In this document: positions 11,262 through 62,640 of the stretch, piece after piece
Layout: every line of letters starts with the position of its first letter
How positions within the stretch are numbered: position 1 is the stretch's first letter
Assembly: GCF_003334315.1 (NCBI RefSeq)
Contig: NZ_QOWR01000009.1
Strand: one strand, 5' to 3'
Length of the DNA stretch: 64,000 bases
From: Escherichia coli
GTDB taxonomy: Bacteria; Pseudomonadota; Gammaproteobacteria; Enterobacterales; Enterobacteriaceae
The notes under the pieces: generated by a model
Told to the model about the DNA's origin: nothing
Database searches by the model: none
Seen by the model: only the letters and a program-made list of their open reading frames with translations
Position numbers and translations under genes: made by a program

Positions 11262-11385
11262 AATGACCTGGTGGTCCGTGACTTCCCTACGCTGGCATTA
11301 TCCAGATCAGGTGATACGGGTATTTCTCAGCCTTCACGCAGAAGGGCACCCCGAGTCGTTTGGTTGCGATGATAAATCGCAGAGG
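11262..11385 (-). promoter_or_regulatory. TPP (THI-box) riboswitch in the thiM 5' leader
   Basis: The reverse complement of the leader contains ...GGGGUGCCCUUCUGCGUGAAGGCUGAGAAAUACCCGUAUCACCUGAUCUGGAUAAUGCCAGCGUAGGGAA..., including the conserved CUGAGA thi-box. It lies immediately upstream of the thiM start. Boundaries are approximate. Confidence 0.75.
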
Positions 11386-26208: not shown

Positions 26209-29200
26209 ATGGACAAGGAATTACCGTGGCTGGCGGATAACGCCCAACTGGAACTGAAATATAAAAAAGGCAAAACGCCGCTCAGTCATCGTCGCTGGCC
26301 GGGCGAACCAGTGTCCGTTATCACTGGAAGTCTCATCCAGACATTGGGTGATGAATTGCTACAAAAAGCTGAGAAGAAAAAAAACATTGTCTGGCGTTAT
26401 GAGAATTTTTCACTGGAGTGGCAGTCCGCCATCACGCAGGCCATCAACTTGATCGGCGAACACAAACCCTCAATCCCGGACCGGACAATGGCGGCGCTAG
26501 CCTGTATCGCGCAAAATGACAGCCAACAGTTGCTCGACGAAATCGTCCAACAAGAGGGGCTGGAATATGCGACTGAGGTGGTGATTGCACGCCAGTTTAT
26601 TGCGCGGTGTTATGAGAGTGATCCTCTGGTAGTGACATTGCAGTATCAGGACGAGGATTATGGCTATGGTTATCGCTCAGAAACCTATAACGAATTCGAT
26701 CTCCGACTGCGTAAGCATCTCTCTCTGGCAGAGGAAAGCTGCTGGCAGCGTTGCGCCGACAAACTCATTGCCGCACTACCAGGAATAACCAAAGTTCGCC
26801 GCCCTTTTATTGCGCTGATCCTCCCGGAAAAACCAGAAATAGCCAATGAGTTGGTAGGCCTTGAATGCCCGCGAACTCATTTTCATTCTAAGGAGTGGTT
26901 AAAAGTTGTTGCTAATGACCCCACAGCGGTGAGAAAACTCGAACACTACTGGAGCCAGGATATATTTAGCGATCGAGAAGCCAGCTACATGTCGCATGAA
27001 AACCACTTCGGCTACGCGGCCTGCGCCGCCCTTTTGCGCGAACAAGGACTGGCAGCCATTCCGCGCCTCGCGATGTATGCCCATAAAGAAGATTGCGGCA
27101 GTCTGCTGGTACAAATTAACCATCCGCAAGTCATCCGCACCTTGCTACTGGTGGCTGATAAAAACAAACCCAGCCTGCAACGTGTAGCTAAATACCATAA
27201 AAACTTCCCCCATGCGACGCTCGCCGCACTGGCAGAACTGCTGGCGTTAACAGAACCACCAGCCCGCCCTGGTTATCCAATCATCGAAGACAAAAAGCTG
27301 CCTGCACAGCAAAAAGCACGCGATGAATACTGGCGTACGCTGTTACAAACGCTGATGGCATCGCAGCCACAACTGGCAGCAGAAGTGATGCCGTGGTTAA
27401 GTACTCAACCCCAGTCAGTGCTGAAGAGTTATTTATCGGCACCGCCCAAACCGGTTATTGATGGCACCGATAACAGCAATCTGCCAGAAATCCTCGTTTC
27501 ACCACCGTGGCGTAGTAAGAAAAAAATGACAGCTCCACGTCTTGATTTGGCACCGCTCGAATTAACTCCGCAAGTTTACTGGCAACCAGGCGAACAAGAG
27601 AGGCTTGCCGCCACTGAGCCTGCCCGTTATTTCAGCACGGAATCTCTTGCGCAACGCATGGAACAAAAAAGTGGACGAGTTGTATTACAGGAACTGGGTT
27701 TTGGGGATGATGTATGGCTGTTTCTGAATTATATACTCCCCGGAAAACTGGATGCTGCACGCAATTCACTCTTTGTTCAGTGGCATTACTACCAGGGGCG
27801 GGTTGAAGAGATCCTGAATGGCTGGAACTCCCCGGAAGCACAATTAGCAGAACAGGCGCTCCGCAGCGGTCACATAGAAGCGTTAATTAACATATGGGAA
27901 AATGACAACTACTCACATTATCGTCCGGAAAAGAGTGTCTGGAACCTGTATTTATTGGCACAGTTGCCGCGTGAGATGGCTTTGACCTTCTGGCTGCGTA
28001 TCAATGAGAAAAAGCATCTGTTCGCGGGTGAGGACTATTTTCTCAGTATCCTCGGATTGGATGCGCTACCAGGTCTGCTGTTGGCTTTTTCACATCGTCC
28101 AAAAGAAACATTTCCGTTAATTTTAAATTTTGGCGCAACAGAACTGGCGCTGCCTGTTGCCCACGTCTGGCGACGTTTCGCGGCGCAGCGTGATCTGGCT
28201 CGCCAGTGGATTTTACAATGGCCGGAACATACGGCTAGTGCACTTATCCCTCTTGTCTTTACCAAACCCAGCGATAATAGCGAAGCCGCATTACTTGCCC
28301 TGCGTTTACTGTACGAACAGGGACATGGCGAATTGCTACAAACCGTGGCAAACCGCTGGCAGCGTACAGATGTATGGTCTGCCCTGGAGCAGTTGCTTAA
28401 ACAGGGTCCAATGGACATTTACCCGGCACGCATTCCAAAAGCCCCTGATTTCTGGCATCCGCAAATGTGGTCCAGGCCGCGCCTTATCACTAATAATCAA
28501 ACTGTTACCAATGACGCTCTGGAAATTATCGGCGAAATGCTGCGCTTTACCCAGGGGGGACGTTTTTATAGCGGGCTGGAACAACTGAAAACGTTCTGCC
28601 AGCCACAAACGCTGACAGCTTTTGCCTGGGATCTCTTCACTGCGTGGCAACAAGCTGGTGCCCCCGCAAAAGACAACTGGGCATTTCTGGCGTTAAGTCT
28701 CTTTGGTGACGAAAGCACGGCACGGGATCTGACGACACAGATCCTCGCCTGGCCACAAGAAGGCAAATCTGCCCGTGCTGTCAGCGGCCTGAACATCCTT
28801 ACCCTGATGAATAATGATATGGCGCTGATACAGCTGCATCATATATCGCAACGGGCTAAATCCCGCCCCTTACGTGATAACGCGGCGGAATTTCTTCAGG
28901 TGGTCGCAGAAAATCGCGGGCTAAGCCAGGAAGAGCTAGCGGACAGATTAGTCCCAACCCTGGGCCTTGATGATCCGCAGGCGTTGAGTTTTGATTTTGG
29001 TCCCCGGCAGTTTACCGTTCGCTTCGATGAAAATCTCAACCCGGTTATCTTTGATCAGCAAAACGTTCGCCAGAAAAGCGTTCCCCGTTTGCGCGCCGAT
29101 GACGATCAACTGAAAGCGCCCGAGGCACTGGCCCGACTAAAAGGGCTAAAAAAAGATGCTACTCAGGTGAGCAAAAACCTGCTCCCGCGTCTTGAAACGG

Positions 29201-29841
29201 CCCTACGTACCACCCGACGCTGGTCGCTGGCAGATTTTCATTCTCTGTTTGTTAATCATCCCTTTACCCGTCTGGTTACCCAGCGATTAATATGGGGGGT
29301 TTATCCGGCAAATGAACCGCGTTGTTTACTCAAAGCCTTTCGTGTGGCCGCAGAGGGGGAGTTCTGCAATGCGCAAGATGAGCCAATTGACCTGCCTGCG
29401 GACGCTCTGATTGGCATTGCCCACCCGTTAGAAATGACAGCAGAAATGCGCAGTGAATTTGCACAGCTTTTTGCCGATTACGAAATTATGCCGCCTTTTC
29501 GCCAGTTGTCGCGCCGCACGGTGCTGCTCACACCTGACGAGTCAACCAGTAACAGCCTGACTCGCTGGGAAGGTAAATCCGCTACCGTTGGGCAACTTAT
29601 GGGAATGCGATACAAAGGCTGGGAGTCAGGCTATGAGGACGCATTTGTCTATAACCTGGGTGAGTACCGGCTGGTCCTTAAGTTTTCACCCGGTTTTAAC
29701 CACTACAATGTTGATAGCAAAGCGCTAATGAGCTTCCGTTCTCTTCGAGTGTACCGTGACAATAAATCCGTCACTTTTGCCGAACTTGATGTGTTTGATT
29801 TGAGTGAGGCGTTAAGCGCACCTGACGTCATTTTCCATTAA
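26209..29841 (+). CDS. yehI: Giant uncharacterised protein, MolR paralogue lacking the WGR domain
   Basis: 1210 aa; long blocks shared with MolR (VSPPW.SKKK, FDFGPRQFTV.FDE, LFADYE..PPFRQL). Confidence 0.85.
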   Translation: MDKELPWLADNAQLELKYKKGKTPLSHRRWPGEPVSVITGSLIQTLGDELLQKAEKKKNIVWRYENFSLEWQSAITQAINLIGEHKPSIPDRTMAALACIAQNDSQQLLDEIVQQEGLEYATEVVIARQFIARCYESDPLVVTLQYQDEDYGYGYRSETYNEFDLRLRKHLSLAEESCWQRCADKLIAALPGITKVRRPFIALILPEKPEIANELVGLECPRTHFHSKEWLKVVANDPTAVRKLEHYWSQDIFSDREASYMSHENHFGYAACAALLREQGLAAIPRLAMYAHKEDCGSLLVQINHPQVIRTLLLVADKNKPSLQRVAKYHKNFPHATLAALAELLALTEPPARPGYPIIEDKKLPAQQKARDEYWRTLLQTLMASQPQLAAEVMPWLSTQPQSVLKSYLSAPPKPVIDGTDNSNLPEILVSPPWRSKKKMTAPRLDLAPLELTPQVYWQPGEQERLAATEPARYFSTESLAQRMEQKSGRVVLQELGFGDDVWLFLNYILPGKLDAARNSLFVQWHYYQGRVEEILNGWNSPEAQLAEQALRSGHIEALINIWENDNYSHYRPEKSVWNLYLLAQLPREMALTFWLRINEKKHLFAGEDYFLSILGLDALPGLLLAFSHRPKETFPLILNFGATELALPVAHVWRRFAAQRDLARQWILQWPEHTASALIPLVFTKPSDNSEAALLALRLLYEQGHGELLQTVANRWQRTDVWSALEQLLKQGPMDIYPARIPKAPDFWHPQMWSRPRLITNNQTVTNDALEIIGEMLRFTQGGRFYSGLEQLKTFCQPQTLTAFAWDLFTAWQQAGAPAKDNWAFLALSLFGDESTARDLTTQILAWPQEGKSARAVSGLNILTLMNNDMALIQLHHISQRAKSRPLRDNAAEFLQVVAENRGLSQEELADRLVPTLGLDDPQALSFDFGPRQFTVRFDENLNPVIFDQQNVRQKSVPRLRADDDQLKAPEALARLKGLKKDATQVSKNLLPRLETALRTTRRWSLADFHSLFVNHPFTRLVTQRLIWGVYPANEPRCLLKAFRVAAEGEFCNAQDEPIDLPADALIGIAHPLEMTAEMRSEFAQLFADYEIMPPFRQLSRRTVLLTPDESTSNSLTRWEGKSATVGQLMGMRYKGWESGYEDAFVYNLGEYRLVLKFSPGFNHYNVDSKALMSFRSLRVYRDNKSVTFAELDVFDLSEALSAPDVIFH

Positions 29842-29901
29842 AACACAGCGGGCAGTGATGCAACTGCCCGTTATCAACACGACTTACCAGCGGGGAAAGC
29901 G

Positions 29902-30219
29902 ATGATCGTGCAAAAAGAGCTGGTTGCTATTTACGATTATGAGGTCCCTGTACCTGAAGATCCGTTTTCCTTCAGACTTGAGATCCATAAATGCTCTGAA
30001 TTATTTACAGGTTCCGTCTATCGACTGGAGCGATTCCGGCTACGTCCAACATTTCATCAACGTGATCGAGAAGATGCTGACCCGCTAATAAATGATGCGT
30101 TGATTTATATAAGAGATGAGTGTATTGATGAGCGGAAATTACGAGGTGAATCACCTGAAACTGTAATAGCAATTTTTAATCGTGAACTACAGAATATATT
30201 CAACCAAGAAATAGAATAA
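29902..30219 (+). CDS. yehK: Small uncharacterised protein
   Basis: 105-aa ORF directly downstream of yehI. Confidence 0.75.
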   Translation: MIVQKELVAIYDYEVPVPEDPFSFRLEIHKCSELFTGSVYRLERFRLRPTFHQRDREDADPLINDALIYIRDECIDERKLRGESPETVIAIFNRELQNIFNQEIE

Positions 30220-30389
30220 TATACTCTAAATAATTCAAATTGGTCCGATCCGGCGCACCGTCCCAATGGCCTGGATTATAAATCTCATTATCTTAATTGC
30301 AACGGGGTCCAGCCGTGGTTATAATTCGTTCGTTGGAACACGATGTTGCACAGGCTGTGGTGTTAGGCCTGAAAATAGTAAATAAAAGA

Positions 30390-30416
30390 ACCTGCCTCAC
30401 CAGCAGGTTTTTTTAT
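30390..30416 (+). terminator. Intrinsic terminator downstream of yehK
   Basis: AACCTGC-ctcacc-AGCAGGTT hairpin followed by TTTTTTT. Confidence 0.55.
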
Positions 30417-30525
30417 TTACTGTGATCTGCTTTCCAGATATTTTTCGCTCAAACAACTAATGCGCCAAACATTTATTGCGCGTAAAATATCGTTTATTTC
30501 ATTAATACATTTCAGGGATGAATAT

Positions 30526-31613
30526 ATGTCACCGCAGAATAATCATCTGCAGCGTCCGCCTGCTGCTGTGTTATACGCCGATGAACTGGCAAAATTAAAA
30601 CAAAATGATAACGCACCTTGCCCGCCCGGTTGGCAGTTAAGTTTGCCTGCGGCCCGTGCTTTTATCCTTGGCGACGAAGCGCAAAATATCAGCCGTAAAG
30701 TGGTGATTAGCCCCTCCGCTGTCGAACGTATGTTAGTCACTCTTGCTACCGGCCGCGGTTTGATGTTGGTGGGGGAACCGGGTACCGCAAAATCTCTTCT
30801 TTCTGAATTACTGGCAACCGCTATTAGCGGCGATGCCGGGTTAACCATCCAGGGCGGGGCATCTACCACCGAAGATCAAATCAAGTATGGCTGGAACTAC
30901 GCCCTGCTTATCAATCATGGTCCGTCAACGGAAGCGCTGGTCCCTGCCCCGCTTTATCAGGGAATGCGCGACGGCAAAATCGTCCGTTTCGAAGAGATAA
31001 CGCGTACACCGCTGGAAGTGCAGGACTGTCTGTTAGGTATGCTTTCTGACAGGGTGATGACGGTGCCGGAACTCACTGGTGAAGCCAGTCAGCTCTATGC
31101 GCGAGAAGGCTTTAATATTATTGCCACTGCCAATACCCGCGATCGCGGCGTCAATGAAATGAGTGCTGCGCTAAAGCGTCGCTTCGATTTTGAAACGGTT
31201 TTTCCGATTATGGATTTCGCCCAGGAGTTGGAACTGGTCGCCAGTGCTTCGGCGCGTTTGCTGGCCCATAGCGGTATTCCGCATAAAGTGCCTGACGCGG
31301 TACTGGAATTACTGGTCCGCACCTTCCGCGATCTGCGTGCCAACGGCGAAAAGAAAACGTCAATGGATACACTGACAGCGATTATGTCCACCGCTGAAGC
31401 CGTGAACGTGCCCATGCTGTGGGCGTCCGCGCCTGGTTTTTAGCGAATCGCGCGGGGGAGCCTGCCGACCTGGTGGAATGTATTGCCGGAACCATCGTCA
31501 AAGATAACGAAGAAGATCGCGCGCGTCTGCGCCGTTACTTCGAACAGCGTGTCGCCACACATAAAGAAGCTCACTGGCAGGCTTATTATCAAGCCCGCCA
31601 CCGCCTGCCGTGA
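30526..31613 (+). pseudogene. yehL: MoxR-type AAA+ ATPase, reading frame broken by a frameshift near 31395-31443
   Basis: Walker A (VGEPGTAKS) lies in ORF 30460..31443. The C-terminal part continues in a different frame (ORF 31419..31613) and ends 10 nt before the yehM start. The span is 1088 nt against the 1089 nt expected for the 362 aa I recall for K-12 YehL. Confidence 0.65.
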
Positions 31614-50799: not shown

Positions 50800-50972
50800 G
50801 ATGAGCATTCAGATAGTGGTTCACGCGCACGGGTTGCGCACCGCCGGAGTAAGGATTTACTGAGGCTAGCGACGCCATCATAACGAGCAAAAAGTGCGAT
50901 CGTCAAAGGAGAATCGTGAGGAAATGCTGCATTGCTGACATTTACGCCAGCAATGCAACGTCAAAGAACTTT

Positions 50973-62439: not shown

Positions 62440-62640
62440 CGCATCCGGCATTTGGTTCCTGTCGCCGGATGCGGCTTGAACGCCTTATCCGGCCTACAAA
62501 ACCATACAAATCAGTATGTTGAGCTTATTGTAGGCCGGATAAAACGCGCCAGCGTTGCATCCGGCATTTGGCTCCTGTTGCCGGATGCGGCGTGAACGCC
62601 TTATCCGGCCTACAAAACCACACAGATCATGATGTTATGT
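62440..62640. repeat. Cluster of REP elements (BIME)
   Basis: Repeated GCCGGATGCGGC(G/T)TGAACGCCTTATCCGGCCTACAAA units in alternating orientation. Confidence 0.75.

Follow-up and report, generated by a model that had tools for sequence, protein, structure and literature searches.

[quoted passage not shown]

Introduction

What occupies the spacer between the Escherichia coli genes yehK and yehL? We analysed a stretch of 64 kb (here called the window) in which an intrinsic terminator stands well downstream of the yehK stop codon, and in which the initial annotation had offered three readings of the interval at 30220-30420: a long 3' untranslated region (UTR), a terminator-associated small RNA (sRNA), or an unannotated small membrane protein. 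The standard RefSeq annotation of yehK-yehL overlooks an expressed sRNA gene, and other strains have two toxin genes there that it misses too; because the spacer is unannotated, a reader working without tools sees an unexplained gap.

[quoted passage not shown] The identity of the gene, its anatomy, the absence of toxin and target, and its frequency in the population were computed here; expression in MG1655 and the pairing mechanism come from the literature; and we infer the 5' end of the RNA and the lack of a current cis-encoded job. Earlier literature stated that MG1655 is without this locus (PMC3919570), and the orz-only locus has since been described by Shore et al. (2024, mSystems, PMC11264685). 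Both that locus and its MG1655 sRNA, OrzPmg, are already known, and there is no discovery here.

Results

The yehK-yehL spacer

The region under study is yehI-yehK-yehL. A 711-nt query over the interval found a match in 5247 of the 5426 complete E. coli genomes, where RefSeq annotates yehK and yehL beneath it. This query has a 100% identical counterpart in an O20:H12 pig isolate. The two neighbours are placed as follows.

29902..30219, plus strand: yehK coding sequence, 105 aa, the upstream neighbour (ORF list and RefSeq E. coli annotation)
30526..30560, plus strand: start of yehL, encoding a MoxR-type AAA ATPase, the downstream neighbour (RefSeq annotation transferred from locus L002)

The stop codon of yehK (TAA, 30217-30219 in the ORF list) ends at 30219, just where the initial annotation had put it, and the yehL start is in frame with a listed ORF at 30460..31443. 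The spacer measures 306 nt in the window versus 1240 nt in O157:H7 (locus L001). In every genome examined, including O157:H7 and the strains of loci L003 and L004, RefSeq/PGAP leaves zor ORFs and orz sRNAs unannotated, and the spacer is blank even in strains with two complete toxin-antitoxin pairs.

An intact orzP gene with its own promoter and terminator

The initial annotation had proposed an Rfam scan. Run over 29000-31500, it matched RF02083, the OrzO-P RNA antitoxin family, to 30339-30414 on the plus strand at 99.9 bits (E = 9e-17; gathering score 60), spanning model positions 1-76 of 76, and a scan of the whole window recovered the same match. A full-length family match, combined with the presence of orz in 5232 of the 5426 complete E. 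coli genomes, puts the interval beyond chance. A permissive scan also returned the Thr, Trp and Phe leaders and STnc370, together with a minus-strand OrzO-P match of 25 bits; all lie far under the gathering score and arise from the terminator palindrome. Elsewhere in the window, three other families scored above gathering, all on the minus strand: naRNA4/CssrE (62533-62610, 88.3 bits), a Peptidase-S11 RNA motif (50804-50884, 72.8 bits) and a TPP riboswitch (11267-11363, 71.2 bits).

30332..30415, plus strand: orzP (OrzPmg) antitoxin sRNA, about 84 nt (Rfam, O157:H7 identity, Term-seq 3' end)
30332-30351, plus strand: 5' targeting segment of orzP, GTTGGAACACGATGTTGCAC
30297-30302 and 30320-30325, plus strand: orzP promoter, -35 TTGCAA and -10 TATAAT with a 17-nt spacer (promoter scan, 10/12)

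The subtype can be read from the V1 triplet, which separates OrzP (ACG) from OrzO (GAA) (Wen et al. 2014, PMC3919570): ACG occupies 30340-30342 in the window, which assigns the gene to the OrzP subtype. Its orz gene is 100% identical to the yehL-proximal orzP of O157:H7 (L001 2924-2999), as is the promoter region upstream, and Shore et al. likewise give the MG1655 copy as 100% identical to EDL933 orzP (PMC11264685). The promoter hexamers are unchanged across five aligned loci, and Table 3 of PMC11264685 puts the conservation of the promoter boxes of orz-only loci above 98%. The -35 box is palindromic and is common to two divergent promoters, that of orzP on the plus strand and that of zor on the minus strand. 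From the -10 box and the onset of complementarity, transcription would start at about 30332 (the G of GTTGG...), which in complete loci is the first position of the stretch complementary to the toxin mRNA; the near-consensus promoter ends 7 nt upstream of this sRNA start.

At the 3' end, the hairpin and T7 run noted in the initial annotation are real, lying at 30389-30414 instead of 30390..30416: AACCTGC (30389-30395), a CTCACCA loop, GCAGGTT (30403-30409) and the T run (30408-30414). In the minimum-free-energy fold, flanking A/U pairs lengthen this stem to 14 bp. The 84-nt RNA at 30332-30415 folds at -27.4 kcal/mol (z = -3.28; 0 of 200 shuffles as stable), with a small 5' stem-loop, a single-stranded A-rich linker and the 14-bp terminator stem in the predicted structure. 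All 14 terminator-stem pairs are kept in eight aligned homologues, except for one pair broken in the BL21-Gold locus (L005); across the aligned homologues the terminator stem is otherwise invariant and the 5' stem carries one-sided changes only, as seen in a covariation check. With a whole-model score above gathering, the OrzP V1 triplet, its own sigma-70 promoter and a Rho-independent terminator, the gene is a member of RF02083.

Expression of the unit and its independence of yehK

The window and a K-12 derivative differ at a single base in this locus (30258), which falls outside the orz promoter and transcript, so experiments on MG1655 should apply to the window as well. In that strain OrzPmg gives a northern blot signal that is lost in a deletion strain, where the deletion covers the promoter together with the 34 nt at the start of the gene (PMC11264685). 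Term-seq places plus-strand 3' ends of MG1655 at 2204485 and 2204446 (Adams et al. 2021, PMC7815308, supplementary files 1 and 3), which lie 111 and 150 nt upstream of yehL and are classed there as 'orphan', not as primary ends of yehK. With identical flanking sequences, the first corresponds to window position 30415, immediately after the T7 run, and the second to linker position 30376.

These data bear on the long 3' UTR offered as a reading in the initial annotation, and on the related possibility of an sRNA processed from the 3' UTR of the yehI-yehK mRNA; in both cases the hairpin would serve as the yehK terminator. Between the yehK stop and 30389 there is no other terminator-like site on the plus strand, so that yehK transcripts probably end at the same hairpin, and the second Term-seq end, at 30376, suggests some processing (PMC7815308). 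Read-through from yehK could thus add to the RNA over the interval. The promoter 7 nt upstream of the sRNA start nevertheless speaks against a 3' UTR origin, as do the 'orphan' label of the MG1655 ends and the fact that the signal-abolishing deletion took the promoter and the start of the gene. In O157:H7, moreover, two convergent zor genes, each with a terminator, separate the promoter-sRNA-terminator unit from yehK by over 1 kb, which makes orzP an autonomous gene. Since a 3'-UTR-derived sRNA is one without an independent promoter, the sequence evidence does not favour placing orzP in that class, and we regard a yehK 3' UTR origin as very unlikely. The earlier suggestion of a terminator-associated sRNA was therefore essentially right (RF02083), the sRNA coming from the orzP promoter and not from the yehK 3' UTR; read-through to the terminator may occur, but it is orzP that defines the interval.

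Complete zor-orz loci in other strains

What has been lost becomes apparent from strains in which the locus is complete. In O157:H7 the spacer holds two tandem modules, each made up of an orz gene and, divergent from it, a toxin gene whose 5' UTR is long, and each encoding a 29-aa ORF on the minus strand, either MDTLTQKLTVLIAVLELLVALLRLIDLLK (ZorO) or a T3S variant (ZorP). The ZorP variant, which begins MDSL..., is the toxin that neighbours the yehL-proximal orz copy. A Zor ORF is present at loci L001, L003, L004, L007 and L009-L011. Many strains besides O157:H7 have one or two complete zor-orz pairs in this slot.

Complete loci carry a pair of direct repeats about 166 nt apart, one forming the 5' end of orz and the other the target in the zor UTR. 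The O-type repeat reads GTTGGTACGAAA(T/C)GTTGC and the P-type repeat GTTGGA(A/C)CACGATGTTGC; from these two repeat pairs, orz and its zor-UTR target co-vary between the paralogues. In the window, the K-12 derivative and BL21, a regular-expression scan found only the orz member of the pair. Two further strains, JA0266 (L003 1053-1369) and APEC IMT5155 (L007 56-372), carry a third orz/zor variant with the pairing segment GTTGGGGCGCCATGTTGC, probably the 'Q' type of Shore et al.; in both, yehK is annotated as frameshifted (pseudogene).

The locus is not confined to E. coli. Escherichia whittamii (L009 11880-12950) has two zor-orz pairs between yehK and yehL, as in E. coli, with a Q6R substitution in the second Zor (MDTLTRKL...). 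Pairs in the same slot in this species suggest that the locus is older than the split of these Escherichia species.

Where the locus is complete, Orz uses its first 18-20 nt to pair with the zor 5' UTR (PMC3919570), and this is how the antitoxin would act in strains that keep the toxin. For the O-type pair, repression of zorO toxicity by OrzO is RNase III-dependent and Hfq-independent, and it needs pairing over 15 contiguous or 17 discontinuous nucleotides; OrzP has no such repressive effect on zorO (PMC3919570).

A deletion scar and the remains of zor

30234..30239, no strand assigned: deletion junction (scar), TTCAAA (alignment with the yehK 3' flank and the zor UTR of three zor-containing strains)
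30237..30267, minus strand: remnant of the zor mRNA 5' UTR, about 30 nt, without target site or toxin ORF (alignment)
30302-30297 and 30280-30275, minus strand: leftover zor promoter, -35 TTGCAA and -10 TATAAT with a 16-nt spacer (promoter scan, 10/12)

Between the end of yehK and the promoter region lies a scar that joins the yehK-proximal flank (ATAATTCAA/G, the slash marking the break) to the zor 5' UTR (CTTGAA/ATTGG). The junction reads ATAATTCAA/ATTGGTCC, and its parents are the flank ATAATTCAAG... and the zor 5' UTR ...CTTGAAATTGG. The crossover falls within the 2-nt 'AA' of an imperfect repeat, TT(C/G)AA, and homology to the zor side begins at about 30237 in the alignment. Compared with intact loci, the window is shorter by 325 nt than the one-copy strain of locus L004 and by 934 nt than O157:H7.

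Little of zor survives. The zorO 5' UTR is 174 nt long (PMC5397157); when this length is mapped from O157:H7 onto the window, the position homologous to the zor transcription start would be 30267, which leaves about 30 nt of the UTR in place. Shore et al. report that more than 99% of orz-only assemblies keep 27-29 nt of it (PMC11264685). The leftover promoter (30275..30302) is unchanged relative to zor-containing loci and is directed into yehK in antisense; in orz-only loci its conservation is given as 99.7%/100% (PMC11264685, Table 3). No Zor-like ORF was found in any frame of the 64-kb window, and the OrzP pairing 19-mer GGAACACGATGTTGCACAG, searched on either strand with up to three mismatches, occurs once in it, in orzP itself. 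The window thus has neither the divergent 29-aa Zor ORF nor the zor-UTR target site of a complete zor-orz system.

Position 30258, in the UTR remnant, is C in the window and A in the seven other orz-only alleles examined and in all zor-containing loci. This private SNP marks the window as a non-K-12 allele.

The most probable history is the following. The zor-orz module, which occupies the yehK-yehL slot in most E. coli, would have suffered a deletion running from the yehK-proximal flank to the start of the zor 5' UTR, removing the 29-aa Zor ORF, its terminator and the UTR segment that pairs with the antitoxin, and leaving the bidirectional promoter region and a complete orzP. From TTGCAA-17-TATAAT, orzP would then be transcribed on the plus strand from about 30332 and stop at the intrinsic terminator near 30415, for a transcript length of about 84 nt. 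Because its cognate target is deleted in the window, OrzP would be an orphan antitoxin there, with no cis-encoded function.

The 39-codon ORF

30266..30385, plus strand: 39-codon ORF MAWIINLIILIATGSSRGYNSFVGTRCCTGCGVRPENSK, starting MAWIINLIILIATG... (ORF list; judged non-coding)

The initial annotation had also drawn attention to a 39-codon ORF with a hydrophobic N-terminus, as a possible small membrane protein. Such an ORF exists, although its ATG is at 30266 rather than 30268, and a protein beginning MAWIINLIILIATG... might be imagined to be translated from a yehK read-through transcript: the frame is intact in the window and in the K-12 and BL21-type alleles, and the hydrophobic stretch is there. 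Its position suggests another origin, since the ORF overlaps the zor transcription start, both promoters and 54 nt of orzP, and the hydrophobic residues (IINLIILIA) are simply the TATAAT...TTGCAA boxes of the divergent, AT-rich promoters read as codons. The N-terminal sequence is therefore conserved because the boxes are conserved for transcription.

Several further features count against translation. The initial annotation saw no clear Shine-Dalgarno sequence, and there is none, the 12 nt before the ATG reading CGCACCGTCCCA. The ATG itself owes its T to a C-to-T change at the base that corresponds to the mapped zor transcription start. When the equivalent frame was translated in 10 homologous loci, none of the five zor-containing copies had the ATG, their codon being ACG or ACA, and L014 and L015, both orz-only, likewise had ACG. 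In the orzO paralogue the frame reaches a stop at codon 10, and a 2-nt indel lies beyond it. The sole peptide-changing substitution within the ORF among orz-only alleles, S21L in BL21, is non-synonymous. A search among about 15 billion predicted proteins did not find the exact 39-aa peptide, even though it is encoded in K-12 genomes, and the peptide had no NCBIfam match. A small membrane protein gene, lacking here a ribosome-binding site, a conserved start, a frame preserved in homologues and a family match, is extremely unlikely, and judging from sequence the ORF is considered a non-coding by-product of the promoters and the sRNA.

Distribution and decay of orz-only loci

The 153-nt orz query has 7072 places in the 5232 genomes that it matches, and a query comprising the zor UTR and ORF has 5230 places in 3399 of the same 5426 genomes. 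By subtraction, orz without zor occurs in about 1833 genomes (34% of 5426), with about one orphan copy per genome. This agrees with the published survey, in which about 30% of E. coli assemblies keep orz without zor and 96% of these are orzP-like (PMC11264685). Outside E. coli, the exact 26-nt terminator pattern was found in representatives of three other Escherichia species among 100,044 species genomes, an exact match that underestimates the spread; all three, E. whittamii and two others, have full zor-orz pairs.

In some strains the locus is itself disrupted. IS1 elements lie in or just after the orz locus in S1-INA-02-A (L008 1501-2304) and WCHEC025985 (L016 1845-2598). The match of the former to the window ends at 30318, within the orz promoter spacer, and in both strains yehR follows directly after IS1, with yehL-yehQ deleted; loss of orzP and the yehLMPQ cluster is thus tolerated. 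BL21-Gold (L005) and the strain of locus L006 have a G to T change at 30407, by which the orz terminator stem loses a C-G pair, and a C to T change at 30327, between the -10 box and the start, to which L006 adds C to T at 30313. These B-type mutations may represent early decay of an orphan gene.

Discussion

In about a third of E. coli, the K-12 and B laboratory strains among them, the antitoxin RNA is present and its toxin is not. Such orphans could be neutral relics, a form of immunity against re-acquisition or re-purposed regulators; this modest question has already been raised by the Fozo laboratory. We take orphan OrzP to be, on present indications, a neutral relic.

A case for retention can be made, either for targets in trans or as immunity against an incoming zorP (anti-addiction). 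The orz-only state is common, at about 34% of genomes; the promoter boxes of orz-only loci are the more than 98% conserved noted above (PMC11264685, Table 3); OrzPmg is expressed in MG1655 (PMC11264685); and eight orz-only alleles have one polymorphic site in the 84-nt transcript versus five in 95 nt of UTR remnant and promoter, a difference that in this small sample is not significant. However, all orz-only alleles share one junction, so their frequency may reflect a single event spread by descent or recombination. The window has no site complementary to OrzP, some strains have lost the locus to IS1 events, which destroyed or removed it, BL21-type alleles carry a mutation in the terminator stem, and the available portions of PMC11264685 mention no phenotype of the MG1655 deletion strain. 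Weighing these points, we think retention for such a role unlikely.

A wider proposal, that the orphan locus is still active, would include OrzP acting on other mRNAs or as immunity against incoming zorP, and also the leftover zor promoter, no longer followed by the zor terminator, driving antisense transcription over yehK; this we hold to be distinctly unlikely. The candidate antisense RNA would run from about 30267 on the minus strand through the 3' part or all of yehK to a terminator-like hairpin at 29870-29849, between yehI and yehK, which is the first such site on the minus strand, some 420 nt from 30267. If the proposal were true, antisense RNA from a former toxin promoter would regulate the yehI-yehK operon; no minus-strand Term-seq 3' ends are listed over yehK or at 29870-29849 by Adams et al. 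(2021, PMC7815308).

Comparison with known systems

The neutral remnant that we favour can be set beside its relatives, starting with the most distant. In IstR-1/tisB and OhsC/shoB, as in zor-orz, the sRNA is divergent from the toxin and its 5' end pairs with a long toxin 5' UTR (PMC3919570), although the sequences are unrelated to zor-orz. Antitoxin-only strains are far rarer for shoB/ohsC (two strains) than for zor/orz, and the copy-number section of the same survey reports none for tis/istR (PMC11264685). OrzO, of the zorO-orzO pair, is much closer: it has the architecture, the terminator and the 5'-end pairing principle of OrzP, but differs in its V1, its pairing segment (GTTGGTACGAAATGTTGC), its first stem-loop and a 2-nt indel.

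OrzP of the zorP-orzP pair of O157:H7 EDL933 (Fozo 2010; Wen et al. 2014, PMC3919570; RF02083) is the identical sRNA, with the same promoter and terminator and the same V1, ACG. O157:H7, however, keeps the divergent zorP and, 166 nt upstream, the 5' UTR target GTTGGACCACGATGTTGCAC, whereas the window is without both. The closest counterpart of all is OrzPmg of MG1655 (PMC11264685): it shares with the window the yehK-yehL slot, the junction, the promoter, the transcript and the absence of toxin and target, and differs from it by the one SNP at 30258 in the zor UTR remnant and by nothing else of substance.
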